51,064 bases of DNA from a virus (taxonomy: Duplodnaviria > Heunggongvirae > Uroviricota > Caudoviricetes): the IMG/VR virus record IMGVR_UViG_2534681675_000014; one strand, given 5' to 3'. The translations under genes were made by a program, and so were the position numbers. Below the pieces are notes generated by a model. The model saw nothing but the letters and a program-made list of their open reading frames with translations. It was not told the origin of the DNA and did no database searches. Shown piece by piece: positions 11,051 through 35,480 of this stretch. Each line of letters begins with the position of its first letter. The first letter of the stretch is position 1.

Positions 11051-11051
11051 C

Positions 11052-14174: not shown

Positions 14175-14462
14175 TAACACTTCCTTAATTTTCCCTTAAC
14201 AATTTAGGGTGCTAAACTTTTTTGCGCAGTTTACACAAAAAAATAGTGCGTACGCAAAAACTATCTAACATGATGAGCTTTAACCGGGAAACTTGTATAT
14301 GTTGTGAGCATAAAGTTGGCTGAGAAATCTAAAACGGGTAGAATGACTGCGGGTGCTTGAGGCTATCTGCCTCGGGCATGAACACCAAAGGCAGATAGAG
14401 AAAAGCCCCAGTTAACATTACGCGTCCTGCAAGACGCTTAACATTAATCTGAGGCCAATTTC

Positions 14463-15744: not shown

Positions 15745-16034
15745 TGGTGGATTTACGTAAAGCGGCGCGGGGGCAGATGTGCACCGTCAGAATTCCTGGC
15801 TACTGCAATCACGATCCGGAAACGTCTGTGCTGGCGCATTACCGACTGGCGGGAACGTGCGGAATAACGACAAAACCACACGATATGCAGGCGGCGATTG
15901 CCTGTAGCTCATGCCACGATCTAATCGACGGGCGGGTAAAAACCAGCGATTACACCAAAGAAGAATTACGCCTGATGCATGCAGAAGGTGTTTTTCGCAC
16001 ACAAGAAATCTGGAGAAAGGAGGGATATTTGTGA
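15744..16034 (+). CDS. YbcO-like Cys/His-rich nin-region protein (putative nuclease)
   Basis: 96 aa; Cys/His pattern CTVRIPGYCNH...CSSCHD; length and position match DLP12 YbcO as recalled. Confidence 0.6.
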   Translation: MVDLRKAARGQMCTVRIPGYCNHDPETSVLAHYRLAGTCGITTKPHDMQAAIACSSCHDLIDGRVKTSDYTKEELRLMHAEGVFRTQEIWRKEGYL

Positions 16035-16573
16035 TTTACCCAACGAATACAGGAAAAAGCGGAGAACACCTTCGTCTCGCCACGCTGGAAAGTGTCTGGA
16101 TTCAGGGCAAACTGCGTATGTGGGGGCGCTGGTCGTATATTGGCGGTGGCAGGTCAGGAAATATGTTCAATCAGTTGTTGGCATCCCAAAAATTGACGAA
16201 AACAGCCATCAATGAAGCCCTGCGCAGAATGAAAAAAGCGGGAATAGAGAAAGCTGAGCTGGAAGCGTTTTTGAGAGAGATGATCAACGGCAAGCAAAAG
16301 AGCTGGCTGGCGCATTGTACTGATGCAGAGGCGTTATGTATTGATCGAGTCATAAGTGAGGTGCTGGCAGAGCATCCAGGATTGATTTGCATTCTCCGGC
16401 AACGCTATGAAGGGCGGGGGATGACTAAGCGTAAAATGGCTGAATTGCTACATGATGCACACCCAGAGTGGTGTTTTAGCACATGCGAAAAACGGATTGC
16501 TAATTGGTTAGCTGTTGCTGAGTATGTCCTATATATTCCCATGCGTGAATCATTTGCTGAGAAAATGGCTTGA
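16031..16573 (+). CDS. Q-family late-gene antiterminator, paralog 2 (likely the functional late activator)
   Basis: GTG 16031 overlapping upstream stop (GTGA), AGGAGGG SD; WGRW motif and Q-like C-terminus; followed by a strong terminator about 85 bp downstream. Confidence 0.55.
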   Translation: MIYPTNTGKSGEHLRLATLESVWIQGKLRMWGRWSYIGGGRSGNMFNQLLASQKLTKTAINEALRRMKKAGIEKAELEAFLREMINGKQKSWLAHCTDAEALCIDRVISEVLAEHPGLICILRQRYEGRGMTKRKMAELLHDAHPEWCFSTCEKRIANWLAVAEYVLYIPMRESFAEKMA

Positions 16574-18589: not shown

Positions 18590-18782
18590 TCATTTTCTCC
18601 ATTGATAGTTGTTACTTTTGGCGATGTAACGATATCAAGTGCGAGGTTATGCCGCCAGATTCTTAATCTGGTACTTCATCAGGCCCTTGCATGTACTAGG
18701 GCTTTTTCATTGTCAGGCTACGGATAACATCTCTGACTTCTTGTTAGTAAATCTGAGAGCCTGGACCCTACTGGATTTGCCC

Positions 18783-19688
18783 CTATATTTCCAGACATCT
18801 GTTATCACTTAACCCATTACAAGCCCGCTGCCGCAGATATTCCCGTGGCGAGCGATAACCCAGCGCACTATGCGGATGCCATTCGTTATAATGCTCGAAC
18901 GCCTCTGCAAGGTTCTTTGCTGCCGTTAACCCGTCTGGTTTGGGCATGATACTGATGTAGTCACGCTTTATCGTTTTCACGAAGCTCTCTGCTATTCCGT
19001 TACTCTCCGGACTCCGCACCGCCGTGTTCTTCGGTTCAAGTCCCAACATCCGGGCGAACTGGCGTGTTTCATTAGCCCGGTAGCATGAACCATTATCCGT
19101 CAGCCACTCCACTGGAGACGACGGAAGATCGTTGCCGAAGCGGCGTTCCACCGCTCCCAGCATGACGTCCTGTACTGTTTCACTGTTGAAGCCGCCAGTA
19201 GTCACCGCCCAGTGCAGTGCCTCACGATCACAGCAGTCCAGCGCGAACGTGACACGCAGTCTCTCTCCGTTATCACAGCAGAACTCGAACCCGTCAGAGC
19301 ACCATCGCTGATTGCTTTCTTTCACGGCCACTCTGCCTGTATGTGCCCGTTTCGATGGCGGTACAGCAGGTTTTCGCTCAAGCAACAGCGCATTCTGGCG
19401 CATGATCCGGTAAACACGTTTGGCATTGATCGCAGGCATACCATCAAGTTCTGCCTGTCTGCGAAGCAGCGCCCATACCCGACGATAACCATACGTGGGC
19501 AGCTCTCCGATAACATGGTGTATACGGAGAAGCACATCCGTATCATCAGTGTGACGACTGCGGCGGCCATCCATCCAGTCATCGGTTCGTCTGAGAATGA
19601 CGTGCAACTGCGCACGCGACACCCGGAGACAACGGCTGACTAAGCTTACTCCCCATCCCCGGGCAATAAGGGCGCGTGCGCTATCCAC
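18783..19688 (-). CDS. insD: IS2 transposase OrfB (InsD)
   Basis: 301 aa, recalled as IS2 InsD. Confidence 0.9.
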
Positions 19689-20011
19689 TTTTTTGCCCGT
19701 CCATATTCAACGGCTTCTTTGAGGAGTTCATTTTCCATCGTTTTCTTGCCGAGCAGGCGCTGGAGTTCTTTAATCTGCTTCATGGCGGCAGCAAGTTCAG
19801 AGGCAGGAACAACCTGTTCTCCGGCGGCGACAGCAGTAAGACTTCCTTCCTGGTATTGCTTACGCCAGAGAAATAACTGGCTGGCTGCTACACCATGTTG
19901 CCGGGCAACGAGGGAGACCGTCATCCCCGGTTCAAAGCTCTGCTGAACAATTGCGATCTTTTCCTGTGTGGTACGCCGTCTGCGTTTCTCCGGCCCTAAG
20001 ACATCAATCAT
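19646..20011 (-). CDS. insC: IS2 OrfA (InsC)
   Basis: 121 aa from [18 protein letters not shown]...; overlaps insD as expected for the InsCD frameshift fusion. Confidence 0.85.
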
Positions 20012-20141
20012 CTGTTCTCCAATGACTAGTCTAAAAACTAGTATTAAGACTATCACTTATTTAAGTGATACTGGTTGTCTGGAGATTCAGGGGGCCAGTC
20101 TACCTACGTTTAGCACCATCCGAATTCTCGGAGGTGAGGCT

Positions 20142-22044: not shown

Positions 22045-22181
22045 AATCTTAACTACAATATGATTCATTTTGATGATTGTTTCATAAGGAACAGTGAAGT
22101 AAGATCTAAGAGGAGTTAAATTTTATACAGTATAATCATAATATTGCAGCAAGGTGGTTATAATTGAAAGAATATTTAGAT

Positions 22182-23639
22182 ATGAATACATCTCATGTAA
22201 GAGTTGTTACTCATATGTGTGGGTTCCTGGTTTGGCTCTATAGTCTTTCAATGTTGCCACCAATGGTTGTAGCATTGTTTTATAAAGAAAAAAGCCTGTT
22301 CGTTTTCTTTATAACTTTCGTTATATTTTTTTGCATTGGTGGCGGAGCGTGGTATACAACTAAGAAATCTGGCATTCAATTACGTACCCGTGATGGGTTT
22401 ATTATAATTGTAATGTTTTGGATTTTGTTTTCTGTTATTAGTGCATTCCCTTTATGGATTGACTCAGAACTTAATTTAACGTTCATTGATGCTCTGTTTG
22501 AAGGGGTTTCTGGAATAACAACAACAGGAGCAACTGTAATTGATGATGTTAGTTCATTACCTCGGGCATATTTGTACTATCGGTCACAGTTAAATTTTAT
22601 AGGTGGTTTAGGAGTTATTGTTCTGGCGGTTGCAGTATTGCCATTATTGGGTATTGGTGGTGCAAAGCTTTATCAGTCAGAAATGCCGGGGCCATTTAAG
22701 GATGACAAACTCACTCCCCGCCTGGCCGATACGTCACGGACACTGTGGATAACTTATTCTTTATTAGGTATTGCTTGTATTGTCTGTTATAGACTTGCAG
22801 GAATGCCTTTGTTTGATGCTATTTGTCACGGGATTTCCACAGTTTCGCTTGGTGGTTTCTCAACTCATAGCGAGAGTATCGGATATTTTAATAACTATTT
22901 GGTTGAGCTGGTGGCTGGTGCTTTTTCCCTGCTATCGGCTTTCAACTTTACTCTTTGGTATATTGTTATTAGCAGAAAAACGATAAAACCTTTAATCAGA
23001 GATATTGAACTTCGTTTCTTTCTGTTAATAGCCTTAGGGGTGATCATTGTTACCTCTTTCCAGGTCTGGCATATAGGTATGTATGACTTGCATGGAAGTT
23101 TTATTCATTCGTTTTTTCTTGCCAGCTCCATGCTCACTGATAATGGTTTAGCTACGCAGGATTATGCAAACTGGCCCACGCACACGATAGTGTTTTTGCT
23201 GTTGTCAAGTTTCTTTGGGGGATGTATAGGTTCAACCTGTGGTGGAATTAAGTCACTTCGATTTCTTATACTTTTCAAACAAAGCAAACACGAGATAAAT
23301 CAACTTTCTCATCCCAGAGCGTTGTTGAGTGTAAATGTAGGAGGGAAGATAGTTACAGATCGTGTAATGAGGTCTGTATGGAGTTTCTTTTTTCTTTATA
23401 CTCTCTTCACGGTGTTTTTTATACTGGTGTTAAATGGTATGGGATATGATTTTCTTACATCATTTGCAACAGTGGCTGCATGTATTAATAATATGGGATT
23501 AGGTTTTGGGGCTACTGCATCGTCATTCGGAGTGCTTAATGACATTGCAAAATATTTAATGTGCATAGCTATGATTCTTGGTCGCCTTGAAATTTATCCT
23601 GTTATTATATTGTTTTCAGGTTTTTTTTGGCGCTCCTAA
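22182..23639 (+). CDS. trkG: TrkG potassium uptake protein (Trk/Ktr family membrane protein)
   Basis: 485 aa from MNTSHVRVVTHMCGF..., recalled as Rac TrkG; AT-rich; ORF track offers a TTG start at 22164 with AAGGTGG SD. Confidence 0.9.
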   Translation: MNTSHVRVVTHMCGFLVWLYSLSMLPPMVVALFYKEKSLFVFFITFVIFFCIGGGAWYTTKKSGIQLRTRDGFIIIVMFWILFSVISAFPLWIDSELNLTFIDALFEGVSGITTTGATVIDDVSSLPRAYLYYRSQLNFIGGLGVIVLAVAVLPLLGIGGAKLYQSEMPGPFKDDKLTPRLADTSRTLWITYSLLGIACIVCYRLAGMPLFDAICHGISTVSLGGFSTHSESIGYFNNYLVELVAGAFSLLSAFNFTLWYIVISRKTIKPLIRDIELRFFLLIALGVIIVTSFQVWHIGMYDLHGSFIHSFFLASSMLTDNGLATQDYANWPTHTIVFLLLSSFFGGCIGSTCGGIKSLRFLILFKQSKHEINQLSHPRALLSVNVGGKIVTDRVMRSVWSFFFLYTLFTVFFILVLNGMGYDFLTSFATVAACINNMGLGFGATASSFGVLNDIAKYLMCIAMILGRLEIYPVIILFSGFFWRS

Positions 23640-23776
23640 TATATGGCTGATTTATAATTGTGAGTTTAATATTATGTTGACTCACTCATTGATCCAATAC
23701 CTAACTTTACCAGCAACACCTCCGCCCCCAGTAGCACTGGCTGCTGGGGTGCGTTTTATTCATAAAGCAAGGCTGT

Positions 23777-24568
23777 ATGAGCGAGAAATTAAAGATAGTC
23801 TATCGCCCATTACAAGAATTGTCACCGTATGCGCACAACGCCAGGACGCACAGTACTGAGCAGGTGGCACAACTGGTAGAAAGTATTAAGCAATTCGGCT
23901 GGACTAATCCGGTGCTGATTGACGAAAAGGGCGAAATTATTGCGGGTCACGGTCGTGTTATGGCGGCTGAAATGCTCAAAATGGATTCTGTTCCGGTCAT
24001 TGTTCTGTCTGGCCTGACGGATGAGCAGAAAAAGGCGTACCGCCTGGCAGATAATCGCCTGCCGATGAATGCTGGCTGGGATGAAGATCTGTTGCGGATG
24101 GAGCTGTCGGACCTAATCAATGCTGATTTTGATGTCTCCCTGACAGGCTTCATCCCGACAGAAATTGATGAACTGTTGACGGATGTTTTGCCCGGTACAG
24201 GAAATGAGGAGGAGCCGTATACGACGAAAATTGATACGCCTGTTTATGAGCCGTCGGACGGTAAACCGGATATCAGTGAACTGTACGACGATACGAAAAC
24301 TCAGGAGCTGATCAGCCGGATACGTTCGGCGTCCCTTGATCCTGATATTGAGAAATTCCTCCTGTGTGCGGCAGAACGTCACACAGTGTTTAATTTCAGC
24401 AGAATTGCGGACTATTACGCTCATGCCCCCGCTGAAATTCAGTGCCTTTTCGAGGAGTCGGCGCTGGTGATCATTGATTATCAGCAGGCTATTGAAAATG
24501 GATTTGTCCGAATGACGCAGCGCATGGTGGAGATCATGCATGGCGGGGAGGAGGAGGAATATGCGTGA
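23777..24568 (+). CDS. ParB-like nuclease-domain protein (YnaK-like)
   Basis: 263 aa; N-terminal ParB/Srx-like motifs (IIAGHGR); position after trkG matches ynaK in Rac. Confidence 0.65.
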   Translation: MSEKLKIVYRPLQELSPYAHNARTHSTEQVAQLVESIKQFGWTNPVLIDEKGEIIAGHGRVMAAEMLKMDSVPVIVLSGLTDEQKKAYRLADNRLPMNAGWDEDLLRMELSDLINADFDVSLTGFIPTEIDELLTDVLPGTGNEEEPYTTKIDTPVYEPSDGKPDISELYDDTKTQELISRIRSASLDPDIEKFLLCAAERHTVFNFSRIADYYAHAPAEIQCLFEESALVIIDYQQAIENGFVRMTQRMVEIMHGGEEEEYA

Positions 24569-25493
24569 TGATTTTTGCGCCTTTATTCTGACTCACGGGC
24601 GACCGGACAAAGTTCTGACTTACCGGACGTTGCGTCGTGCTGGCTATACCGGGAAAATTTTTATCGTTGTTGATGATGAAGATAAGACACGGCATCAGTA
24701 CATGGCTGAATTTGGTGAACAGGTGCTGGTATTTTCCAAAGCCGATATTGCCAGTCGTTTTGACGAAGCCGATAATTTTGGTGACCGCCGCTCAATTTTT
24801 TACGCCCGTAATGCCTGTTTCGACCTGGCAAAACTGGTCGGGTGTAAATACTTCATTCAGCTCGATGATGATTATCACGAGTTCCAGTTTCGGGTGGATC
24901 GCAACTATGACCAGGCCTATTTCCCGATAAGGAAACTGGATGCGATCCTTTCTGAAATGCTGGCGTATTACGAATCAATACCCGCGCTTTCCATCGCTAT
25001 GTCGCAGGGCGGGGATTTTCTTGGTGACAATGGCGGCCATGCTTCGTGGGTGAAACGCAAGGCAATGAACAGCTTTATCTGTTCGGTTGATCGACCGTTC
25101 TCATTCATGGGGCGCATTAACGAGGATGTGAATACGTACACGAATCTCGGTCGCTGTGGTGAATTGTTTATGACGATCGGTGCTGTCCAGTTAGGGCAGA
25201 AACAGACGCAGAAAAACAGCGGCGGAATGACCGAGCTGTATCTGGACTCCGGAACCTACGTTAAAAGTTTTTACTCCGTCATGTATTCGCCGTCGTGCGT
25301 AAAAATCTCACTGATGGGTGCCAGCCATAAACGCATTCACCATCAGGTCACCTGGAACAACGCTGCAGTAAAAATCCTTCACGAAAAATACAGGAAGAAG
25401 ACACCCTGCATATCAATGGGGGTGACAAATGATTCCGTATTCGAAAGTCGAGTCTCTGGCAGCGTGCCGGATGACTGCACAACAAATCGCTGA
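24540..25493 (+). CDS. Hypothetical protein with GT-A glycosyltransferase-like motifs
   Basis: 317 aa (alternative start 24561); motifs CAFILTHGRPD, KIFIVVDDEDK and DxD-like IQLDDDY; no predicted TM segments. Confidence 0.45.
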   Translation: MAGRRRNMRDDFCAFILTHGRPDKVLTYRTLRRAGYTGKIFIVVDDEDKTRHQYMAEFGEQVLVFSKADIASRFDEADNFGDRRSIFYARNACFDLAKLVGCKYFIQLDDDYHEFQFRVDRNYDQAYFPIRKLDAILSEMLAYYESIPALSIAMSQGGDFLGDNGGHASWVKRKAMNSFICSVDRPFSFMGRINEDVNTYTNLGRCGELFMTIGAVQLGQKQTQKNSGGMTELYLDSGTYVKSFYSVMYSPSCVKISLMGASHKRIHHQVTWNNAAVKILHEKYRKKTPCISMGVTNDSVFESRVSGSVPDDCTTNR

Positions 25494-25680
25494 CGTTCTG
25501 GATGTTGATCTGAACCGACTGAAAGAAAATCGGGAAGCAATGACAGATTTTTATGCGGCCATCCGTAAGGGCAGAGCGAAAGGTGAAGCCGAGTTACGAG
25601 CGGCATTGTTTAAGCTTGCCAGAAAAGGGGATGCCTTTGCTCTGCGCGAACTACTCAGGGTGGATAAAAATCAGGACTAA
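25471..25680 (+). CDS. Small hypothetical protein (about 69 aa) upstream of terS
   Basis: ORF 25429..25680 overlaps the upstream gene; start uncertain; weak SD. Confidence 0.3.
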   Translation: MTAQQIADVLDVDLNRLKENREAMTDFYAAIRKGRAKGEAELRAALFKLARKGDAFALRELLRVDKNQD

Positions 25681-25683
25681 CTG

Positions 25684-26778
25684 ATGAGCAGACCGGACTG
25701 GGGGGCGTTGCAGCAGGAGTATATTGCTGAATACACCCGCTCCGGTATATCTCCGGTGGCATGGTGTGAAGCAAGGGGACTGAACTACGCAACAGCCCGT
25801 CGTTACATCAAAAAAACTCCGAAAAATGCGCAGAAAGAAATGCGCAAAACTGCGCAAAAAAGTGCGCGAAAAAAAACTGCGCAGACTGCGCAAAGGCAGA
25901 ACGGAAAATCTCAGAAAAAAAAGGCTATATCCGATGCACTCCTGATTGAGGGGGACACGGAAGAAATTTCGTTCTGCCCCGATGAATTCGGTATTTCTGA
26001 CCAGCAGGCAAAATTCGCCATGTTGGTTGCTCAGGGGAAAAAGCCGACAGAGGCATACCGACTGGCTGGTTATGAGGGGCAAGGTGCGACAGCTAACAGC
26101 AACGCCAGCCGTATGCTTAGAAATGCCAGGGTTTATCGTGCTATCAGCTACTTCCGCAATCAGTACCAGAAACGCTATATCGCAGACCTGGATTTACTGG
26201 TGAGCCAGTTGATGGCCATTGTCCAGGCCGACCCCAATCAGTTGGCACAATTTCGCCGTGTTAACTGCCGTTATTGCTGGGGCGAGAATCATCTCTACCA
26301 GTGGCGTGATATTGCAGAATTCGATAAGGCTGCGGCACAGGCCTCCAGAGATGGTAAACCCGAGCCGGAATATGGAGGCCTCGGCTTTGTTGATAACGCC
26401 ATACCCAATCCTGATTGCCCGAAGTGCTGCGGTGAGGGAACAGGACAGCTTTATATGGCTGATACCACACTGCTTGATGGGGATGCGCGGCAATTATATG
26501 CAGGGTCAAAGCTCGGAAAATACGGTGTTGAGATCCTGCTGGAGGATAAGGCTGCCGCCCGGCGTGAATTGTTGCGTTTGTTTTCTGCTGGCGGGGCTTT
26601 ATGTGCAGATAAACGGCTACAGGAACTGGAAATTGAACGGCGCAGAATGGAAAACCAGAAGCTGCGCAAAGAGATCGAAACGGTGGAAGATAATGAACAT
26701 CCCCAGCCTGTGGCGATCAATATTAATGTGGTTGATGCCAGAGTAAGGAGTGATGAAGATGATCTCTCCGACGCTTAA
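25684..26778 (+). CDS. Terminase small subunit
   Basis: 364 aa directly upstream of terL; N-terminal HTH-like region, basic linker. Confidence 0.65.
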   Translation: MSRPDWGALQQEYIAEYTRSGISPVAWCEARGLNYATARRYIKKTPKNAQKEMRKTAQKSARKKTAQTAQRQNGKSQKKKAISDALLIEGDTEEISFCPDEFGISDQQAKFAMLVAQGKKPTEAYRLAGYEGQGATANSNASRMLRNARVYRAISYFRNQYQKRYIADLDLLVSQLMAIVQADPNQLAQFRRVNCRYCWGENHLYQWRDIAEFDKAAAQASRDGKPEPEYGGLGFVDNAIPNPDCPKCCGEGTGQLYMADTTLLDGDARQLYAGSKLGKYGVEILLEDKAAARRELLRLFSAGGALCADKRLQELEIERRRMENQKLRKEIETVEDNEHPQPVAININVVDARVRSDEDDLSDA

Positions 26779-28060
26779 TGTGCCTCAGGCGCGATTTCTT
26801 TCAATGCCCCATAAATTTAAAGCCTATATTGCTGGTTTTGGCTCGGGCAAAACATGGGTTGGGTGTGGCGGCATATGCAAGGGGATTTGGGAGCATCCAG
26901 GTATAAATCAGGGATATTTTGCGCCAACGTATCCCCAAATTCGCGATATTTTTTACCCTACAGTGGAAGAAGTTGCTGCTGACTGGGGATTGAACGTAAA
27001 AATTAATGAGGGAAATAAAGAGGTTCACTTTTATTACGGACGCCAGTATCGGGGAACCACTATCTGCAGATCGATGGAGAAGCCACAAACGATCGTCGGT
27101 TTCAAAATTGGTAATGCGTTGGTGGATGAACTGGACATTTTGCCGAAGGAAAAAGCCAGAACGGCGTGGCGCAAGATAATTGCACGTATGCGTTATAAGA
27201 TTGATGGACTTCGCAACGGTATTGACGTTACAACCACGCCGGAAGGATTCAAATTTGTCTACGAGCAGTTTGTTAAAGCCGTGCGTGAAAAAACAGAGCT
27301 GGCCTCACTGTATGGTCTGGTGCAGGCATCTACTTTCGATAATGAAAAGAACCTGCCAGCAGATTACATTCCTTCGCTTCTTGAATCATACCCTCCAGAG
27401 CTGATTAAAGCCTATCTTCGAGGACAGTTTACTAACCTGACAAGTGGTACTGTTTACCATCAGTTTGACCGGAAACTGAATAATTGCGAAGAAGTGGAGC
27501 AGCCAGGGGAGCCGATTTATATTGGGATGGATTTTAACGTTGGAAAGATGGCGGGAATCGTCCATGTGCTGCGTTTGGGGCTTCCATGTGCGGTAACTGA
27601 AATCATCAATGCCTACGATACGCCGGATATGATCCGCATCATTAAAGAACGCTTCTGGCTGTATGATGGGAATGATTACCGGAAAGTGAGGGAAATTTAT
27701 ATTTATCCAGATGCTTCCGGGGATTCCAGAAAATCAAGTAACGCAAGTACGACGGATATAGCCCAGCTTAAGCAGGCTGGTTTTAACGTTGTGGTGAACA
27801 GCTCGAACCCGCCAGTAAAAGATCGCGTTAACTCAATGAATGCAATGTTCTGCAATGCCAATGGTGAGCGTCGCTATAAAGTTAATGTGAAGCGTTGCCC
27901 GTTATATGCCGAATCTCTGGAGCAACAGGTCTGGGATGAGAAGGGGGAGCCTGATAAAAAATCTGGCAATGATCACCCGAATGATGCCGGAGGTTATTTC
28001 ATCGTTAAGCAATTCCCTATTGTCAAACCGACCGGAAGAGTCACATCACTTCGGATTTAA
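26759..28060 (+). CDS. Terminase large subunit
   Basis: Walker A-like GFGSGKT near N-terminus; ATG 26759 with AAGGAG SD; size and position. Confidence 0.85.
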   Translation: MISPTLNVPQARFLSMPHKFKAYIAGFGSGKTWVGCGGICKGIWEHPGINQGYFAPTYPQIRDIFYPTVEEVAADWGLNVKINEGNKEVHFYYGRQYRGTTICRSMEKPQTIVGFKIGNALVDELDILPKEKARTAWRKIIARMRYKIDGLRNGIDVTTTPEGFKFVYEQFVKAVREKTELASLYGLVQASTFDNEKNLPADYIPSLLESYPPELIKAYLRGQFTNLTSGTVYHQFDRKLNNCEEVEQPGEPIYIGMDFNVGKMAGIVHVLRLGLPCAVTEIINAYDTPDMIRIIKERFWLYDGNDYRKVREIYIYPDASGDSRKSSNASTTDIAQLKQAGFNVVVNSSNPPVKDRVNSMNAMFCNANGERRYKVNVKRCPLYAESLEQQVWDEKGEPDKKSGNDHPNDAGGYFIVKQFPIVKPTGRVTSLRI

Positions 28061-28062
28061 TT

Positions 28063-29469
28063 ATGGCTGATATATCAACACCCAACCTCGACTATAACGA
28101 TATGCTGGAGGCGTGGGATATTAACGACGCACTGATGGGCGGTACGCTTGAAATGCGCAGGCAGGGGGAAAATTATCTCCCAAAATGGCCTAACGAAGAT
28201 GAAGACGCTTATAAAAAACGCCTGTCTGTGGCTACGCTACTTCCTGTGTATGAAGAAAGCATCAAGCAAAATATTGGGCGCATATTTGCAGAGCCGACAG
28301 TATTGAGTGAGGAAACGCCGGCAAAAATCAGGGAATATGCAGAAAATATCGACATGGAGGGGAGCCGACTGGATGTGTGGGCGCAGCAATTTTTCAGCCT
28401 CGCATTTCAGTATGGTGTGGCACATGCGCTGGTGGACTATCCACGAACGGATATGAAAGAGATTCGGACAAAAGCCGATGAAAACGCGACCGGTGGTCGT
28501 CCGTACGTTACGATGCTGAATCCACGCCAGGTTATTGGATGGAAATCGAAAGTTGAAAAAGGGAAAGTTGTTCTCACTGATTTGCGTATAAAAGAGGTCA
28601 TCATTATTGATGGTGATGATTTCGGGCAGAAGAAGGTGGAGCAGATCCGCCATATTATGCCCCGTCGAGTTGAAATTTATCGACGTAGCGAAGGCACTAA
28701 TGGCGAATCTGTCTGGACGCTTCATGAGTCATGGAATACCAGCCGTGATGATATTCCTCTGGTAACACTGTACACGAAGAAAACAGGATTTATGCGTGGT
28801 ACACCGCCATTGCTTAATCTTGGCTTGCTGAATATCAAGCACTGGCAAAGCCAGAGCGAGCAGGACAATATTCTTCATGTTGCCCGCGTTCCATTGCTGG
28901 TGGCCTACGGGCTGGACAGGAATGAAGAACTGACGGTTGGTGCATCCACCGCTACGATTTTTGAGGACAGAACAAAAAATGGCCTCGAATATGTTGAACA
29001 TAGTGGCGCAGCGATAGAATCTGGCGAAACATCACTTGAGAAGCTGGAAAATCAGATGCGTCATGCCGGCGCTAAACTTCTGCGTGCTGAAAATACATCC
29101 ACCAAATCTGTTGATCAGACTAATGAAGAGCGAATGCAGGAAAACTCGCCGCTTTATACAATGGCGAACTCCCTCGAAGATGCCCTCGATAATATTCTCC
29201 AGATAATGGCGGAATGGATCGGAGAGAGTTGCGGTGGCAATGTGGATGTGCGCACTGAACTGGATGTATCTGCCCAGGTGTTTGACTCATCCTCCGCGCT
29301 GGCTGTTCAGTCATTGCGTCAGGGCGGTGATATACGTCAGATTGATGCGGTTCGGGTGTTGCAGGCGTTGAAATTTATCGATCAGGATTCCCGTCCAGAG
29401 GAAGTGATCGATGAATTAAAAAATCAGAGTGTAATGCTGATGGAAATCAATGATGCAAACCGTGAATGA
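28063..29469 (+). CDS. Portal protein
   Basis: 468 aa immediately after terL; acidic C-terminus. Confidence 0.75.
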   Translation: MADISTPNLDYNDMLEAWDINDALMGGTLEMRRQGENYLPKWPNEDEDAYKKRLSVATLLPVYEESIKQNIGRIFAEPTVLSEETPAKIREYAENIDMEGSRLDVWAQQFFSLAFQYGVAHALVDYPRTDMKEIRTKADENATGGRPYVTMLNPRQVIGWKSKVEKGKVVLTDLRIKEVIIIDGDDFGQKKVEQIRHIMPRRVEIYRRSEGTNGESVWTLHESWNTSRDDIPLVTLYTKKTGFMRGTPPLLNLGLLNIKHWQSQSEQDNILHVARVPLLVAYGLDRNEELTVGASTATIFEDRTKNGLEYVEHSGAAIESGETSLEKLENQMRHAGAKLLRAENTSTKSVDQTNEERMQENSPLYTMANSLEDALDNILQIMAEWIGESCGGNVDVRTELDVSAQVFDSSSALAVQSLRQGGDIRQIDAVRVLQALKFIDQDSRPEEVIDELKNQSVMLMEINDANRE

Positions 29470-30565
29470 ACGGCTGCGTGATGAATCAATTGCTCATGCA
29501 GTCTGGATATCCCGCTATAGCACTGGCGTGGCTGCCAGAATGGTGAAAATACTGAATGACAGCGATGCGGAACTTACTGCTCGCCTGCTGATAGCACTGG
29601 ACAGCCTCGATCCAGGTAGTTTTACCGTTAAGCGCCTGGAGTCACTTCTGGCGAGCGTCAGAGAGGTTAACCGCACTGCTATTAACAGCATGTTTACCAG
29701 TCTCTCCGGAGAGCTGAACGAGCTGGCAATTTATGAGGCTGGTTATCAGTTAAGTCTGTTTGATTCTATGCTACCTGATTTTGTTGCTGATGTTCACCCT
29801 CTGGTTGGTATCTCTCCTGATGCACTTTATGCCGCTGCAATGGCGCGACCATTCCAGGGACGACTGCTCAGTGAGTGGGCCTCAGATCTTGAGGCGGATC
29901 GGCTCAGACGCATAACAAATACAGTGCGTCAGGGTTTTTTGCTGGGGGATACCAATGAGCAGATCGCAAGAAAAATTCGGGGACATGTCAGTAAGGGATT
30001 TCAGGATGGTGCATTGCAGATGAGCCGGGCTAATGCGGCCAGCATTGCAAAAACAGCGGTTGGACATCTTGCTGCTACTGCCCGTGAGAGTTTTGCCAGC
30101 GCGAATAATGATTTGATTAAGGGTAAGCAATGGTTATCAACGCTTGATAATCGTACTACGCCACAATGTCGAATCAGGGATCGCCTCAAATATACGCTGA
30201 ATAATAAACCTGTAGGTCACAGCGTGCCTTATTTGCAGGGGCCGGGAAAAATTCATTTCTGCTGCCGCTCAACGGAAACGTTCATTCTGAAATCAGCGAA
30301 GGAACTGGGTATTGATGTTCGCGATATTTCCCCGGCTGAGCGGGCCAGCATGGATGGAGTGGTGGCCGGAGATACAACCTACAGGGAATGGTTTTTGCGT
30401 CAGCCTTACACCAGACAAAAACAGATTGTGGGGGAAACCCGAGCAAAGCTGATTCGGGATGGTGGTATGTCGCCAGATGAATTTTACACCGATAAAGGCG
30501 AATGGCTGACGCTGAAGCAGCTCCGTGAGCGTGATGCACAGGTATTCAGAAAAGCAGGGATTTAA
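29450..30565 (+). CDS. Head morphogenesis protein (Mu gpF / SPP1 gp7-like)
   Basis: 371 aa after portal; position and length. Confidence 0.65.
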   Translation: MMQTVNERLRDESIAHAVWISRYSTGVAARMVKILNDSDAELTARLLIALDSLDPGSFTVKRLESLLASVREVNRTAINSMFTSLSGELNELAIYEAGYQLSLFDSMLPDFVADVHPLVGISPDALYAAAMARPFQGRLLSEWASDLEADRLRRITNTVRQGFLLGDTNEQIARKIRGHVSKGFQDGALQMSRANAASIAKTAVGHLAATARESFASANNDLIKGKQWLSTLDNRTTPQCRIRDRLKYTLNNKPVGHSVPYLQGPGKIHFCCRSTETFILKSAKELGIDVRDISPAERASMDGVVAGDTTYREWFLRQPYTRQKQIVGETRAKLIRDGGMSPDEFYTDKGEWLTLKQLRERDAQVFRKAGI

Positions 30566-30585
30566 ATAAATCATTTATTACAACA

Positions 30586-30609
30586 GGCTACCTTCGGGTG
30601 GCCTTTTTT
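30586..30609 (+). terminator. Terminator-like hairpin after the head morphogenesis gene
   Basis: ggctacc-ttcg-ggtggcc then T6. Confidence 0.4.
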
Positions 30610-30669
30610 ATTGCTGCGATCCGGATGGTGAGCAGCGTAACTGTCGGAAGAATTAAACCAGGTACTAAT

Positions 30670-31434
30670 ATGAAACTGAAAACGGTCGAGATTAACGGAA
30701 AACAATACGCAGAAATTGATACTGCTGGCCTGCCAGTTTATGTGCACGACGATGGTAAAGAAATTGGCTTCGATGCACCGCTGGCGACAAAAAAAATTAC
30801 AGAGCTTAATGGCGAGGCAAAAAATCATCGCCTGGCTAAAGAAGCTGCAGAGGAAAAACTGGCTAAGTTTGCCGCTATCGAAGACCCGAAGAAGGCGATC
30901 GAGGCACTGGAAATGCTGTCAAAAATCGACCAGAAAAAGCTGCTCGATGCGGGACAGGTTGACCAGGTTAAGGCAGAAATTACGAAAAATTTTCAGCAGC
31001 AATTAGATGAAGAAAAGCAACGCTCTCAGATGCTGGAGAAGCAGCTTTACGATTCTATGATTGGCGGTAGTTTTGCGGGTTCAAAATATATTGCCGATAA
31101 AATTGCGATCCCGGCAGATTTATTACAAGCCCGCTTCGGGCAGGCATTCAAAGTGGAAGAAGGGAGGATCGTTGCTTATGACGCTTCCGGCAACAAAATT
31201 TATTCCCGCGCGAAGCCTGGCGAACTGGCGCAGTTTGATGAGGCGCTGGAGTTCCTTGTCGAAAATTACCCTCAGAAAGACTACATCCTGAAAGCCAGTG
31301 GCAACAATGGCGGCGGCTCCCGTCCGACACAGCATGATATTGGTCAGAAAACGATGAAACGCTCTGCTTTTGATGCACTGGATGTTGCAGGTAAGCAAAA
31401 CGCATTGAAAGACGGTATCACAATCGTTGATTAA
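30670..31434 (+). CDS. Scaffolding protein
   Basis: 254 aa from ATG 30670, coiled-coil-like, acidic; immediately upstream of the major capsid gene. Confidence 0.55.
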   Translation: MKLKTVEINGKQYAEIDTAGLPVYVHDDGKEIGFDAPLATKKITELNGEAKNHRLAKEAAEEKLAKFAAIEDPKKAIEALEMLSKIDQKKLLDAGQVDQVKAEITKNFQQQLDEEKQRSQMLEKQLYDSMIGGSFAGSKYIADKIAIPADLLQARFGQAFKVEEGRIVAYDASGNKIYSRAKPGELAQFDEALEFLVENYPQKDYILKASGNNGGGSRPTQHDIGQKTMKRSAFDALDVAGKQNALKDGITIVD

Positions 31435-31532
31435 CACATTTGTCAGCTTCCGGATGGGAGCTGGTGTCAGGGCTGGATAGCTCATTACTCCATCTATTCA
31501 CAATTACGCAAATTTTTAAGGAATATTTAATT

Positions 31533-32672
31533 ATGGCTGGAAATACCCTGACCGGGTTGATCCCGACTATTTATACCGCCCTGGATGTTGTATCCCGTGA
31601 GCAGGTAGGTTTTATCCCTGCGGTAGCAAAAAACGCAAAAGCTGACGCCGCAGCAAAAGATCAGACGGTAACCGCGCCAGTTGCGCCTGAGGCGAAAACC
31701 GAAGATATCGTACCGGGGCCGTCAGCTCCGAATACCGGTGATCAAAATATTGGCACTGTTGATGTAAAAATTACTAAATCCAAAATGGCACCGGTTAAAT
31801 GGAATGGTGAAGAACAACTGGCTCTTGGCCCTTCAGGGACTTACAACACCATTCTGGCTGATCAGTTCAAGCAGGCTTTTCGCGCCCTTGCAAACGAGGT
31901 TGAGGCTGATCTTGGTGCGTTGTATTTCGGTGCTTCCCGCGCCGTGGGAACCGCAGGGACAACGCCGTTTGGTGTTAAAGATGATCTTTCTGATGCTGCT
32001 CTGGCTCGTCAGGTTCTGGAGGATAACGGCGCACCGACAACCGATCTGCAGATGGTGCTTGGCTCCACTGCCATTGCTAATTTGCGCGGAAAACAGTCTG
32101 TATTGTTTAAAGTGAATGAATCCGGCACTGAACAGCTACTGCGTGAGGGCGTGTTGGGGCGTCTGGAGGGATTCAATATTCACAGTTCGGCAGGTGTGAA
32201 ACGAGCGCCAAAGGTTGCTGCAACTGGTTATCTCGTGAATGGAGAGAAAAAAGAAGGCGATGTTCTTATTTCCATTGATACTGGTTCGGGGAGTATTTCT
32301 GCAGGTCAGATTGTTACGTTCGCTGGTGATCCGAATCAGTATGTTGTGGCAGCAGCGACCAGCAATCTGATTACTCTTGCAGCGCCCGGACTGCGTCAGG
32401 ATCTGGCCGATGATACTGCCATCACAGTTGTTGGGGCCTTTACTGCAAATATGGCGTTTGATCGCAACGCGTTTCTGCTGGCATCCCGTACTCCGGCAAT
32501 GCCGGAAGGTGGCGATAATGCTGATGATGTAATGAATGTTACGGACCCGATTTCAGGGATTACGTTCCAGATTGCATTGTATCGTCAGTATCGCCAGGTG
32601 CGCTATGAAGTTGGACTGGCATGGGGTGTTTCATCAGTGAAGCCGGCACATGGTTGTCTGATTCTTGGTTAA
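31533..32672 (+). CDS. Major capsid protein
   Basis: 379 aa from ATG 31533 (AAGGA SD); position after scaffold. Confidence 0.7.
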   Translation: MAGNTLTGLIPTIYTALDVVSREQVGFIPAVAKNAKADAAAKDQTVTAPVAPEAKTEDIVPGPSAPNTGDQNIGTVDVKITKSKMAPVKWNGEEQLALGPSGTYNTILADQFKQAFRALANEVEADLGALYFGASRAVGTAGTTPFGVKDDLSDAALARQVLEDNGAPTTDLQMVLGSTAIANLRGKQSVLFKVNESGTEQLLREGVLGRLEGFNIHSSAGVKRAPKVAATGYLVNGEKKEGDVLISIDTGSGSISAGQIVTFAGDPNQYVVAAATSNLITLAAPGLRQDLADDTAITVVGAFTANMAFDRNAFLLASRTPAMPEGGDNADDVMNVTDPISGITFQIALYRQYRQVRYEVGLAWGVSSVKPAHGCLILG

Positions 32673-32682
32673 ACATTCAAAC

Positions 32683-32702
32683 GGGGCTTCGGCCCCATTT
32701 TT
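32683..32702 (+). terminator. Terminator-like hairpin after the capsid gene
   Basis: ggggc-ttcg-gcccc followed by ATTTTTAAT. Confidence 0.4.
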
Positions 32703-32714
32703 AATGGGGGGCAT

Positions 32715-32891
32715 ATGGCCGGATTAACTAAAGAGCAAAGAGCACAGCGTGAAGCCGCACAAAAAACGCAAATTGAGTTAGTGGTTATGGTGACCGATTA
32801 TCAGATGTTTCCCGGCGCACCAACTATCGCTAATGTTCATCCTGATGAAGTTGACAACTGGAAGGCTATGGGCTGGAAAACTCAGGAGTAA
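32715..32891 (+). CDS. Small hypothetical protein (58 aa), below the ORF-track length cutoff
   Basis: Hand translation MAGLTKEQRAQREAAQKTQIELVVMVTDYQMFPGAPTIANVHPDEVDNWKAMGWKTQE; GGGGGG SD; fills the capsid-connector gap. Confidence 0.4.
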   Translation: MAGLTKEQRAQREAAQKTQIELVVMVTDYQMFPGAPTIANVHPDEVDNWKAMGWKTQE

Positions 32892-32894
32892 CAC

Positions 32895-33290
32895 ATGATC
32901 ACTTACGTGACCTGTGATGACGTTGATAATGCGTTTGGGAACGCCTGGACGAGTGAGAACGCTAAAAATAAAGCTGTTTTAATGGCTAATGCCTGGCTTA
33001 ATGGCTTCAACCTGAAAATTAACCCATCCCGTATTCCGGAAGAGGTAAAACTTGCGGGAGCATATGCAGCCAGAATTGCCTCATTCGGTAAGTTGTTTCA
33101 GCAGAAAAATGATTCTGGCGTTGTTATCAGTAAAGCCGTGTCGGCTGACGGGGTCAGTGTATCGAAATCATTTTCTGAGTTGCCAGCAAACAGTACTGCA
33201 TTGCTTGAACCCGATTTACAGCTTGCGATAGCACTGCTGAAACCGTACGGACTTAGTCGCTCACAAGTCAGGGTTGTGAGGGGGGGATAA
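32895..33290 (+). CDS. Head-tail connector / head completion protein
   Basis: 131 aa; AGGAG SD; position in head-tail joining block. Confidence 0.5.
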   Translation: MITYVTCDDVDNAFGNAWTSENAKNKAVLMANAWLNGFNLKINPSRIPEEVKLAGAYAARIASFGKLFQQKNDSGVVISKAVSADGVSVSKSFSELPANSTALLEPDLQLAIALLKPYGLSRSQVRVVRGG

Positions 33291-33673
33291 TGGGGCTTCG
33301 TGAAGAGATTCAGTCAGAGGTTGCCGCTGCTTTTGATGAGGATTTAGCGGACGCCGTGAGTGATTTTTCTGGTTCTTACGTTACGCACCGGCACTGGGAT
33401 CCTGTGACGGAAACTGGCGGCGAATCCACCGCAATCTATACCGGGCGAGGCGTGTTGACACGTTATAAGCTGGGCAGAATTGATGGGATTAATATTTTGC
33501 ATGGTGACCTTAAATTAACCGCTCTGGTATGCGAGGTTACGGATAAACCAGCTGTCGACCATATTATTGAGATTTATGATCCTGTATTAAGGCAGTTACA
33601 ACGATACGAGGTAATTACAGCGAGTGTAGATCCTTCCGCATCAGTTTACTCTATCCAGTTAAGGAGAGCGTAA
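33290..33673 (+). CDS. Head-tail adaptor protein
   Basis: 127 aa; start overlaps upstream stop; position. Confidence 0.5.
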   Translation: MGLREEIQSEVAAAFDEDLADAVSDFSGSYVTHRHWDPVTETGGESTAIYTGRGVLTRYKLGRIDGINILHGDLKLTALVCEVTDKPAVDHIIEIYDPVLRQLQRYEVITASVDPSASVYSIQLRRA

Positions 33674-34054
33674 ATGGCAAAGGCATGGGATATAGAACCG
33701 TCAATATTTGCCGGGATGATTGAGGAAGATGTGGGGCTGAAAATTCGCTACATCGCTATGCAGATTCTTACTGCTATTGATATTGCTGCTCCGGTTGATA
33801 CCGGACGTTTCAGAAATAACAACCTGGTGTCGTTACAGCATCCCGATTTTGGTATATCTGATAACGTGGATCCGAACGGTACGATTGCGGTTCAGCGTGG
33901 GATCGGGGTTATTTCGAAAGCTGCAAATTACGGAGTTATTTATATCCAGAATAACCTTCCTTATGCAGAGGCTCTTGAAAACGGTCATTCACAACAAGCG
34001 CCAACTGGCGTGTATGCCAACGCTTTTCATGGTGTTTTACAGGCTTACAAATGA
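33674..34054 (+). CDS. Neck/tail component (HK97 gp10-like)
   Basis: 126 aa; position. Confidence 0.5.
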   Translation: MAKAWDIEPSIFAGMIEEDVGLKIRYIAMQILTAIDIAAPVDTGRFRNNNLVSLQHPDFGISDNVDPNGTIAVQRGIGVISKAANYGVIYIQNNLPYAEALENGHSQQAPTGVYANAFHGVLQAYK

Positions 34055-34443
34055 CGTTTACTGAAATCAGAAATACGGTTATTTCCAGAATGACGGCACA
34101 GACGATTATTGATGGAAAAGACGTATTGTATCCGAACGCGCCAACGTTCGATCCTTCCGGTAAGTTAATCTGGGCGCGGTTAAGTAATATTCCCGGGCAG
34201 GCTGGAGTTAATGAAATTGGCGCGGGGCCGATTGTTTATCGCACGGGGATAATCATTATTCAGTTATTTGTCCCCGCAGGTTCTGGTTCAAAACTCATTA
34301 CTGAGACAGCCGATAAATTGCGGGAACTGTTTGAGTTTCAGGATGACGATCGTCTCAGTTACCAGGCTGTTTCCTCAATAGCCGTTGGCGAAAAGAATGG
34401 CTGGTTCCAGCTTAATCTTCAAATTCCATATCGCGCGCTCTAG
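34051..34443 (+). CDS. Tail terminator (gpU-like)
   Basis: 130 aa; immediately upstream of the major tail protein. Confidence 0.5.
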   Translation: MTFTEIRNTVISRMTAQTIIDGKDVLYPNAPTFDPSGKLIWARLSNIPGQAGVNEIGAGPIVYRTGIIIIQLFVPAGSGSKLITETADKLRELFEFQDDDRLSYQAVSSIAVGEKNGWFQLNLQIPYRAL

Positions 34444-34469
34444 CGCAATTAATGACATAGGAGGCTCCT

Positions 34470-35432
34470 GTGAGTTCAGGTGCAAAGGTTATCTCGGCAT
34501 TTATCCGGGAGACGGTTGCAGGCACTACGCCAGCAAGTGGTGACTGGAGTTTATTAAAACGCACAAGCTGGGGAGTAAAACCCACCCAGAATAAAGGCGA
34601 AAATAATGAGATTGGTGGCTCCCGGATGGCTCAGGGGGCGACGCCTGGCACTGTGGATGTCGGCGGTGATGTTGGTACCAAATTTCGCTGGGGTCAACAT
34701 GATGATTTTCTTGCATCCTGTTTCGGCGCGGAATGGTCAGGCGATTCTCTGACAATGGGGAATGAGCGAATAACATTTTCTCTAGCGACCTATGCGTCCG
34801 ATGTCGGAATTGCCTCTGTCGTCAGAGGAGCGCAGGTTGGCTCATGGAAAATGCAGATCCCTAACGACGGCGATATTACAGCGACCGTAACCTTTGCCGG
34901 ACTGGACTGGGAATCAAAGGCCGATGATACGAATTTTATCAAAGGCGAACCTGTGGATAGTGCAGGAAAGCTACGTTATTCGTTTAAGGAGGTTTCAGCA
35001 GTAAGCCTGAATGGTGTTGCCGGAGGTAACGGTTTTTGTATCGACAGTTTTGATATTCAGTTCGATAACAAACTCCAGACACAGCGTTGTATCGGGACTG
35101 GCTCGCCTTATGCAGGAGCAAATATTCCGACTACTTTTACACCGTCCGGTACGGTGACGCTTTCATGGTCTAAAGCCGCGTGGGAAATCTGGAGTAAAAC
35201 ACTGACTGGAGAAACAGTTCCGTTCAACTTTACGCTTTCGAATGGAGAGGGGGCATACACTTTCAGTTTCCCGAAGGTTCAGGTGTCAGGTGAATGGCCT
35301 GATGGGGGTAATAGCGACATTATCCAGGTTCAATTGAGCATTACCGCAGCAGATGAAGCACCTACGATAACCAGAAAAAAAAATTCCCCGGCTGCCGTGA
35401 TCGCAAAAGCCAGTGCTGAGGCGATTAGTTGA
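34470..35432 (+). CDS. Major tail tube protein (gpV-like, with C-terminal Ig-like extension)
   Basis: 320 aa; upstream of the G/GT chaperone pair and tape measure. Confidence 0.7.
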   Translation: MSSGAKVISAFIRETVAGTTPASGDWSLLKRTSWGVKPTQNKGENNEIGGSRMAQGATPGTVDVGGDVGTKFRWGQHDDFLASCFGAEWSGDSLTMGNERITFSLATYASDVGIASVVRGAQVGSWKMQIPNDGDITATVTFAGLDWESKADDTNFIKGEPVDSAGKLRYSFKEVSAVSLNGVAGGNGFCIDSFDIQFDNKLQTQRCIGTGSPYAGANIPTTFTPSGTVTLSWSKAAWEIWSKTLTGETVPFNFTLSNGEGAYTFSFPKVQVSGEWPDGGNSDIIQVQLSITAADEAPTITRKKNSPAAVIAKASAEAIS

Positions 35433-35480
35433 TTTTCCGTTATTCCTCCTGTGGTACTGCCCTACAGGGGGACGCATTGA

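Follow-up and report, generated by a model that had tools for sequence, protein, structure and literature searches.

TAGT-family enzymes and ParB-like proteins in phage DNA modification

The TAGT (TET-associated glycosyltransferase) family, which Iyer et al. reportedly defined in 2013, takes its name from an association with TET/JBP dioxygenases. The subject here is a TAGT-family glycosyltransferase (GT) and its ParB-like partner, encoded side by side in a 51-kb stretch of DNA (IMG/VR record IMGVR_UViG_2534681675_000014; hereafter the window), which is a complete lambdoid temperate prophage of the Rac type from Escherichia coli. TAGT-family enzymes and ParB-like proteins are each already known from phage DNA-hypermodification clusters. 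The two genes constitute an obligate cassette, a strongly supported conclusion; the favored reading of this cassette, held tentatively and at somewhat less than an even chance, is that of a late-expressed, two-subunit module that glycosylates DNA.

The Pfam family of the TAGTs, PF20691, has as a member the T2/T6 enzyme by which a second glucose is attached to glucosyl-5-hydroxymethylcytosine (glucosyl-5hmC) in DNA (PMC13216743), and phage GTs with the GT-A fold are known to glycosylate 5hmC DNA (bioRxiv 10.1101/2023.12.21.572611). As acceptors, the DNA-acting TAGT members use 5hmC, 5-hydroxymethyluracil (5hmU), or a sugar already present on the DNA (PMC13216743; bioRxiv 10.1101/2023.12.21.572611). 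In all characterized cases, the hydroxyl to which the sugar is attached is put in place beforehand by a dioxygenase or a hydroxymethylase. The cassette TAGT shares with the T2/T6 beta-glucosyl-HMC-alpha-glucosyltransferase (HMC, hydroxymethylcytosine) and other PF20691 members its Pfam family and PHROG, the GT-A fold, the DxD motif, a phage origin, and solubility. However, the T-even members act on glucosyl-5hmC, which depends on a dCMP hydroxymethylase and a primary alpha- or beta-GT, and none of these was found among the listed Pfam families of the window open reading frames (ORFs). Similarity to the T-even proteins is also low: there is a single T4-like match at 24.7% identity, and T2/T6 are not matched at E 1e-5. 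Unlike the cassette TAGT, the T4-like homologue has neither a ParB nor a C-terminal-domain partner nearby. "Solitary TAGT homologs" of yet-to-be-defined function have been reported in 288 of 753 phage genomes (PMC13216743), and the cassette TAGT is one of these.

A second described system is the phage thymine dioxygenase 5mYOX176, which requires ParB176 on double-stranded DNA (dsDNA). ParB176 consists of a nucleotide-binding domain, a linker, and a C-terminal domain, and has no helix-turn-helix (HTH) (O'Toole et al. 2026, PMC13229309). In 5mYOX/ParB loci, GTs and terminases are the most frequent neighbors, and the 5mYOXs that depend on ParB are associated chiefly with kinase and amino-acid-transferase pathways (PMC13229309). 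ParB176, which lies beside a post-replicative DNA-modifying enzyme, has the same small ParB-like domain plan as the cassette partner; its enzyme is a dioxygenase, whereas that of the cassette is a GT, and no 5mYOX was found in the regions examined. A third comparison is offered by phage fusions of a ParB N-domain to a DNA methyltransferase (phrog_498; PADLOC MTase_II), whose N-domain is closely related to that of the cassette partner. Such ParB-fold/methyltransferase fusions are enriched in prophages (PMC12704722). In contrast to the fusions, which transfer a methyl group, the cassette carries its ParB domain on a separate polypeptide with a C-terminal domain of its own, next to a partner that transfers a sugar. 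The non-specific prophage methyltransferase M.EcoGII was also considered as a ParB-domain analogy and was dropped, its paper reporting no additional domains.

Finally, the 5mYOX-associated GT-A DNA glycosyltransferases (PMC8256090; bioRxiv 10.1101/2023.12.21.572611) and the trypanosome base-J glucosyltransferase/GREB1 group share with the cassette the GT-A fold and the tailoring of glycans by secondary GTs and methyltransferases. They differ in acceptor: the 5mYOX-associated GTs receive a hydroxymethyl group made by a neighboring dioxygenase and GREB1 acts on protein, whereas no acceptor-generating enzyme was found for the cassette. An older proposal, as cited by Burke et al. (PMC8256090), holds that, while DNA is being packaged, ParB proteins guide the modifying machinery to it. 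Literature searches by term returned no account of the ParB partner and TAGT as an obligate unit, of a C-terminal-domain-only form of the partner, or of their presence in Rac-type prophages; Iyer et al. 2013 may note a ParB linkage. The searches also returned nothing relevant on ynaK/ydaY, on DNA modification in the virus HHTV-2, or on ParB with glucosyl-HMC transferase.

An obligate gene pair at the head of the packaging module

The partner gene (23777-24568, plus strand) encodes 263 residues and is the full-length form of E. coli K-12 ynaK, as recognized by PF02195, phrog_620, and an AlphaFold2 (AF2) model searched with Foldseek. It is followed by the gene for the soluble GT-A glycosyltransferase of the TAGT family (24561-25493, plus strand; PF20691, phrog_842, Foldseek). 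The longest TAGT ORF begins at 24540 and has 317 codons (24540-25493, plus strand), and a reading made earlier from the sequence alone (the sequence-only reading) correctly located this ORF and that of the partner. The true start is probably the ATG at 24561 (MRDDFCAF..., 310 residues), since nearly all of 17 aligned relatives and the NCBI models begin there, and since this ATG is preceded by a Shine-Dalgarno sequence, GGAGGAGGAGG, within a GGAGG-rich run, and overlaps the ParB stop codon as ATGCGTGA. The junction as read from the sequence (24546-24568, plus strand) thus comprises the Shine-Dalgarno run GGGGAGGAGGAGGA, the TAGT ATG at 24561, and the ParB TGA at 24566-24568. With this 8-nt overlap, the two genes are translationally coupled in the classic form. 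More than 7,900 homologues were scored, and there are 1,489 clusters at 50% identity, which argues that the two ORFs are not chance; the clusters come from a profile search of 1.84 billion representatives, and 704 of them were found at E <=1e-30.

The pairing of the two genes is without exception in the sample examined. Of the first 600 candidate IMG/VR stretches listed, 594 encode a TAGT relative, and in all of the 80 loci kept, a ParB homologue lies directly upstream of the TAGT gene, ending at its start or within a few tens of bases before it. The pairing persists where identity to the window proteins has fallen to 56-61% for the TAGT and 32-54% for the partner. The same order, partner and then TAGT, recurs in the Lactobacillus phages phi jlb1 and c5, Porphyromonas phage005b, Nocardia phage NTR1, the haloarchaeal virus HHTV-2, and metagenomic contigs. 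In these phages and contigs, the terminase genes are next to the cassette or a few genes downstream of it, and in c5 the partner and TAGT genes are the first two after cos. This obligate synteny lends strong support to the idea, put forward in the sequence-only reading, that the ParB-like protein and the GT act jointly.

The cassette is widespread as well as constant in its order. Across the Lactobacillus, Nocardia, and Porphyromonas phages and HHTV-2, identity to the window proteins is 27-47% for the TAGT and 26-40% for the partner. The TAGT remains 43-47% identical between the E. coli prophage, a Lactobacillus phage, a Nocardia phage, and the haloarchaeal virus, and the partner has 40% full-length identity with ORF1 of Lactobacillus phage c5 and with gp21 of HHTV-2. 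The terminases adjoining the cassette belong to at least four Pfam families (Terminase_6N, Terminase_3, TerL_ATPase, and GpA). The cassette thus travels as a unit and comes to stand at the front of packaging operons that have no other relationship. Among 5,426 complete E. coli genomes, the cassette region is at least partly present in 1,580 (~29%), and 889 (~16%) carry at least 80% of it and so a near-complete copy.

"Rosetta stone" fusions of the partner with the TAGT were sought among the 150 best representatives; the N-terminal extensions of the three candidates (P0357, P0359, and P0386) proved to be unlike the partner, and the only ParB+TAGT chimeras found are E. coli deletion products (P0156). 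Some metagenomic neighborhoods hold further sugar- or DNA-related genes. In one metagenomic cassette phage, two GT2-family glycosyltransferase genes lie just after the capsid gene (contig L082, 15837-16894; L083, 8659-9716), suggesting a separate glycosylation system in the structural module. Variants of the cassette also include additional tailoring genes: a cytidylyltransferase-like gene follows the TAGT gene in contig L097 (8246-8650), and a GT-B fragment precedes the partner in contig L100 (2222-2614).

The glycosyltransferase

Assignment of the second protein to the TAGT family is clear. The 317-residue ORF matches PF20691 over residues 15-229 (121.5 bits, E 6e-35; cut-off 27.5 bits) and also phrog_842 (E 1.5e-103); PGAP names the protein "GREB1-related protein". 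Residues 1-150 of the AF2 model, with a predicted local distance difference test (pLDDT) score of ~85-95, adopt a Rossmann-like GT-A fold. The top Foldseek matches in the PDB are all GT-A glycosyltransferases, namely ColGalT1 (a collagen galactosyltransferase), glycogenin, SpsA, LARGE1, and SunS, with E down to 5e-5 and probability 1.0; the TM-scores reach only ~0.3, owing to the poor modeling of residues 228-310. A PDB sequence search with the TAGT profile gave no match, and PADLOC and NCBIfam hold no model for the TAGT or for the C-terminal domain of its partner.

In 18 relatives of 60-82% identity, the key residues G13, R14, D38, D41, and D102-D104 (310-residue numbering) are invariant. The last three form the DxD motif for metal and nucleotide-sugar (QLDDDY, 24864-24872, plus strand). 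The same 18 sequences share four further invariant blocks: NEDVNTY (187-193), GGMT (221-224), GTYVKSFY (231-238), and RIHH (258-261). Thus, the GT-A fold that the sequence-only reading had proposed from the motifs FILTHGRPD, IFIVVDDEDK, and QLDDDY is borne out, the motifs being present in the translation and their key residues conserved. Its statement that the 317-residue protein lacks membrane segments also holds: the maximum 19-residue Kyte-Doolittle mean is 1.08, and neither cassette protein has a membrane segment.

In some relatives, the TAGT is fused to a second TAGT, to an S-adenosylmethionine (SAM) methyltransferase, or to a carbohydrate sulfotransferase. All of these fusion proteins retain the partner upstream, and the four contigs that extend far enough also have a terminase downstream of them. 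As in known DNA sugar hypermodification, the fusions indicate that the glycan is tailored further in some viruses.

The ParB-like partner

The partner is composed of two separable halves. Its AF2 model (mean pLDDT 79) contains two confident domains, residues 7-135 and 160-240, joined by a disordered acidic linker (137-153). The N-domain (residues 1-135; 23777-24181, plus strand), delimited by an alignment of 20 partners and by PADLOC and phrog_498, has a ParB-CTPase fold with the putative nucleotide-binding boxes NAR (I), GHGR (II, containing R60), and ADN (III). Its Foldseek matches are structures of ParB-CDP, PadC, Noc, KorB, sulfiredoxin, and SerK; the matches to 6sdk, 6ryk, 7nfu, 7bnr, 8qa9, and sulfiredoxin have probability 1.0. 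At the level of sequence, the whole protein matches phrog_620 at E 1.7e-90 and, over residues 23-90, Pfam ParB_N (PF02195) at 29.3 bits, just above the cut-off of 26.3. These matches agree with the initial description of the protein as ParB/Srx-like. The accompanying term "nuclease" is only an old Pfam name, with nothing indicating nuclease activity, and the acidic protein, also termed "DNA-binding", has no recognizable DNA-binding domain.

The N-domain also matches phrog_498, "DNA methyltransferase", at E 7e-51 and the N-terminal region of PADLOC MTase_II at E 1.7e-38. Among the phage-record matches listed outside this prophage group, its closest (46-57% identity) are mostly annotated as adenine DNA methyltransferases. 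On the evidence of the phrog_498 and PADLOC matches, the N-domain appears to resemble the N-terminal part of those annotated enzymes.

Alignment of the 20 partners indicates that the best-conserved parts of the protein are not in the ParB domain but in what follows it. A linker motif, YTxKIxxPxYEP (Y148-T-T-K-I-D-T-P155-V-Y157-E-P159 in the window protein; 24218-24253, plus strand), contains Y157, invariant across bacterial and archaeal viruses; Y148, P155, P159, and P164 are conserved in >=90%. The helical C-terminal domain (residues 160-250; 24254-24526, plus strand; AAERHTVFNF..IADYYAHA..SALVIIDYQQAIENGF) is modeled with pLDDT 90-96, and its residues R201, A211, Y214, E226, and D234 are invariant. 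Foldseek gave no PDB match for this domain, and the matches to the Pfam family Phage_Gene47 (E 0.05-0.09) are too weak to use.

The two halves also occur apart. A 139-residue protein of the Vibrio jumbo phage pv27 consists of only the motif and C-terminal domain, is 53% identical to the window protein, and is encoded directly upstream of a TAGT. Metagenomic proteins of this C-terminal-domain-only form (127-145 residues) are common and were upstream of a TAGT in all four contexts examined: directly so in contigs L095, L096, and L097, and with one SAM methyltransferase gene between in L093. The L093 variant (10394-13982) also has an HNH gene and a C5 DNA methylase downstream. The C-terminal-domain-only loci are among replication genes (PolA, primase, and helicase) in pv27, L093, and L097, and after tail genes in L095 and L096; none of the five is at a terminase. 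Conversely, a ParB domain with 65-70% identity is joined to unrelated C-termini in the enterobacterial proteins P0215, P0219, P0234, and P0236. These two distributions show that the halves are separable, and are consistent with the idea that the C-terminal domain is a TAGT-specific subunit and the ParB domain an exchangeable module that phages attach to DNA-modifying enzymes.

Plasmid or chromosome partition (ParABS) was considered as a role for the partner and rejected. There is no HTH_ParB or dimerization domain, the match to TIGR00180 (38 bits) falls below the cut-off of 58, and no ParA was found among the window ORFs scanned; parS sites were not searched for.

A proposed DNA-glycosylating enzyme and its alternatives

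In the proposed mechanism, the two genes would specify a single two-subunit enzyme, made late alongside the packaging machinery, that would add a sugar to the replicated DNA of the phage before or during packaging. The 310-residue protein would be the catalyst, a metal-dependent GT-A transferase that employs its DDD motif and a nucleotide-sugar donor, and the 263-residue protein would be its dedicated adaptor or activator. The C-terminal domain of the partner and the YTxKIxxPxYEP motif would hold or complete the transferase. The ParB-CTPase-fold N-domain, a module that phages fuse to DNA adenine methyltransferases, would couple the enzyme to duplex DNA, in a mode likened to that of the ParB-like activator needed by the thymine dioxygenase on dsDNA. 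DNA is the presumed acceptor, activation or targeting of the transferase the presumed role of the partner, and protection of progeny DNA from host nucleases the presumed purpose.

Several lines of evidence favor DNA. The characterized phage member of PF20691 glycosylates DNA (PMC13216743), and a ParB-like protein of the same plan is required by the thymine dioxygenase on dsDNA (PMC13229309). The N-domain is kin to DNA methyltransferases (phrog_498, PADLOC MTase_II, 46-57% identity), and partners with only the C-terminal domain sit upstream of the TAGT inside replication modules. The 43-47% TAGT identity across viruses with differing hosts, virion proteins, and terminase families suggests a universal acceptor, for which DNA is the common denominator. 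The older proposal on ParB proteins cited by Burke et al. (PMC8256090) points the same way. The obligate pairing, seen in the 80 IMG/VR loci and again in c5, HHTV-2, and others, also favors the proposed enzyme, as do the late-operon position and the translational coupling. The fusions, with their implication of further glycan tailoring as in known DNA sugar hypermodification, also fit DNA glycosylation.

A more specific form of this proposal is that the pair is a self-sufficient enzyme, with the C-terminal domain and Tyr motif in the active complex, that glycosylates canonical DNA, whether on a nitrogen or oxygen of a base, on the backbone, or at a terminus, with no need for a hydroxymethyl-pyrimidine precursor. 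This form is considered rather unlikely.

A number of observations weigh against DNA as the acceptor. Canonical DNA bases have no hydroxyl of the kind the TAGT family is known to use, and no enzyme that would make one was detected. TET_JBP was not found in the window ORFs scanned (the remaining ORFs being covered by the 25 top families listed), among 114 neighboring proteins of 15 distant IMG/VR loci (again by the 25 top families listed), in contigs L082-L086, L093-L097, and L100-L104, which bring the total to ~25 neighborhoods, or in the nine proteins scanned, seven of them of unknown function, of the 31.8-kb, 50-gene phage c5. Likewise, no hydroxymethylase appears among the listed Pfam families or record annotations, although no search was aimed at thymidylate-synthase-type enzymes. 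GTs without a 5mYOX or ThyS neighbor, which make up ~65% of contigs, have been judged "less likely" to act on DNA (bioRxiv 10.1101/2023.12.21.572611), and the eukaryotic TAGT-family member GREB1 is a protein O-GlcNAc transferase (PMC7968844). For the cassette proteins themselves, the C-terminal third of the TAGT model, after residue 228, cannot be relied on (pLDDT below 50). The partner is acidic along its whole length, with an isoelectric point (pI) of 4.45, and Pfam finds in it no HTH_ParB, dimerization, or other recognizable DNA-binding domain. In addition, box II, GHGR in the window protein, is GGNMR, AGNHT, or AGNKT elsewhere, so that its arginine is not universal.

The first alternative is that the TAGT glycosylates a protein, either its own partner, at Tyr157 or a nearby Thr/Ser in the manner of glycogenin priming, or some other conserved phage protein; the ParB-like protein would then be a substrate or scaffold. 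This is considered unlikely, although it is the likeliest of the alternatives. It would account for the invariance of Y157 and the concentration of conservation in the linker motif and C-terminal domain, for the acidity of the partner and its lack of a detected DNA-binding domain, and for the failure to find a source of hydroxymethyl-pyrimidine. GREB1 is a precedent within the family, glycogenin is among the Foldseek matches, and the sulfotransferase, methyltransferase, and second-GT fusions suit a protein-linked glycan equally well. However, the GT-A Foldseek matches are generic (TM ~0.3), and in the AF2 model the motif does not form a free loop but lies for the most part along the ordered margin of the C-terminal domain. 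The N-domain, moreover, is one common to DNA methyltransferases, and the viruses that carry the cassette have no virion or packaging protein conserved in all of them.

An improbable alternative retains DNA and a classical acceptor: the TAGT would use 5hmC, 5hmU, or a DNA-borne sugar, with the precursor supplied by a divergent oxidase or hydroxymethylase encoded elsewhere in the genome, or by the DNA of an invading T-even-like phage. The characterized DNA-acting members of the family do use such acceptors, and in contig L093 the C5 DNA methylase is 1 kb from the TAGT. Highly divergent oxidases exist, and thousands of 5mYOX-like contigs carry no Pfam TET/JBP annotation (PMC13229309); Pyle et al. 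have raised an anti-phage role for prophage GTs (bioRxiv 10.1101/2023.12.21.572611). Against this, phage c5 has only 50 genes, and its seven scanned ORFs of unknown function gave no dioxygenase-like match; the remaining window ORFs are ordinary lambdoid genes; and the T-even TAGTs are only ~25% identical and have no partner. The presence of the cassette in a late operon, and in a virulent phage and an archaeal virus, also makes it a poor fit with defense by a lysogen.

Very improbable is a third alternative, in which the genes have unrelated functions, the ParB-like protein as a packaging accessory or nuclease of the terminase, like the HNH proteins of HK97-like phages, and the GT as a moron acting on a host or envelope molecule: the constant position beside terS/terL, the old family name "ParB-like nuclease", and the moron trkG just upstream speak for it, but the genes never separate in the loci examined and are translationally coupled, the C-terminal-domain-only versions keep the TAGT and leave the terminase, the TAGT has no transmembrane segment, and hosts that range from archaea to Gram-positives share no envelope target.

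O-antigen seroconversion by a GtrA/GtrB/Gtr-type system, which the sequence-only reading had already set aside, is excluded, because the TAGT has no transmembrane segment, because no GtrA/B families were detected among the window ORFs scanned, and because the cassette is also carried by viruses of Gram-positive bacteria, Bacteroidota, actinobacteria, and archaea; its location in the late operon, 22 kb from int, is also unlike that of attachment-site seroconversion genes. Overall, that earlier reading is partly supported: its fold, family, and partnership were right, and its target, DNA or a packaging component, was an inference.

Prophage context and the Rac remnant of K-12

The prophage begins with the integrase gene (1-1236, minus strand), followed by recET, sieB, the gene for an S24-peptidase (cI-like) repressor, and a Q antiterminator; the Q region is followed by an insertion sequence (IS) element and then by the genes for holin, lysozyme, and Rz and by the moron trkG. 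Downstream of trkG are the ParB-like gene, the TAGT gene, an 83-residue ORF, terS, terL, the portal, head, and tail genes, and pinR. Two Q-type antiterminator homologues are present, at 11494-12027 and 15911-16573; one matches Phage_antitermQ at E 1e-31, and the other is a DUF1133 protein with a weak antitermQ match. Adjoining the Q gene, three consecutive minus-strand ORFs of 234, 142, and 365 residues (12024-14180; GC 0.35-0.37) are matched by nothing in Pfam or NCBIfam and only marginally in PADLOC (PDC-S54, E 0.002); they may be an uncharacterized moron or defense cassette.

The IS element belongs to the IS3 family (18780-20093, minus strand; orfA 19646-20056, orfB 18783-19688) and ends in 33-nt imperfect terminal inverted repeats (18780-18812 and 20061-20093). 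It separates the region of the Q antiterminator from the late genes, with the holin gene directly downstream of it, and may impair expression of the late operon, including the ParB/TAGT cassette, in this prophage. The trkG gene (22164-23639; TrkH family, E 2e-144) is a low-GC potassium-transporter moron located between Rz and the cassette. It has its own terminator-like hairpin, a pattern match from a consensus scan with a 10-bp stem and T-run (23726-23749, plus strand), between trkG and the ParB start. In several IMG/VR relatives, the cassette occurs without trkG.

Downstream, terS (25684-26778) and terL (26750-28060), both on the plus strand, were identified by Terminase_2, Terminase_6N, and Terminase_6C matches over the pair. 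The cassette was originally placed "directly upstream of the terminase"; it does precede terS and terL, but an ORF for a basic, HTH-like protein of 83 residues (25429-25680, plus strand) separates the TAGT gene from terS. The phrog_309 "terminase small subunit" profile matches this protein at E 8e-23, over an internal stretch of the profile (positions 145-218 of 319). The protein accompanies the cassette in enterobacterial phages, always between the TAGT gene and terS, and keeps 59-70% identity in loci where that of terS drops to 36-47%; the distant cassettes yielded no homologue. It may be a packaging-specificity factor or an accessory factor of the cassette.

In E. coli K-12, only a fragment of this region survives. 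BLASTN of the Rac remnant (NC_000913.3 1425377-1425980) reveals an 11.5-kb deletion that joins window position 24030 to 35591. K-12 ynaK, which is the same gene as the partner (98% nucleotide identity), is thus cut short after codon 85, and the deletion has removed the TAGT, terminase, portal, and head genes. The K-12 gene ydaY was considered as a possible glycosyltransferase remnant and rejected, since BLASTN places it in the tail region as an ORF fragment. Many other E. coli genomes contain different deletion chimeras, in which the ParB N-terminus is joined to Lom, tail-fibre-assembly (Tfa), or tail proteins, and E. coli variants of this chimeric kind, together with truncated ones, dominate a search with the N-domain only. 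These variants reflect the decay of Rac.

Implications

The cassette is minimal and extremely conserved, with no dioxygenase or hydroxymethylase detected, and is found in temperate and virulent viruses of hosts from E. coli to haloarchaea. As two coupled genes in a Rac-related E. coli prophage, it is a tractable case. If its target is DNA, then either the acceptor chemistry is new or a precursor pathway is hidden, and the finding would bear on restriction evasion, on sequencing artefacts with induced-prophage DNA, and on DNA-labeling tools; glycosylation of canonical DNA, if true, would be a new kind of DNA modification chemistry. If the target is instead a protein, the cassette would extend ParB-fold biology and phage protein glycosylation. 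Should neither target hold, the cassette would still usefully mark where the packaging module begins.

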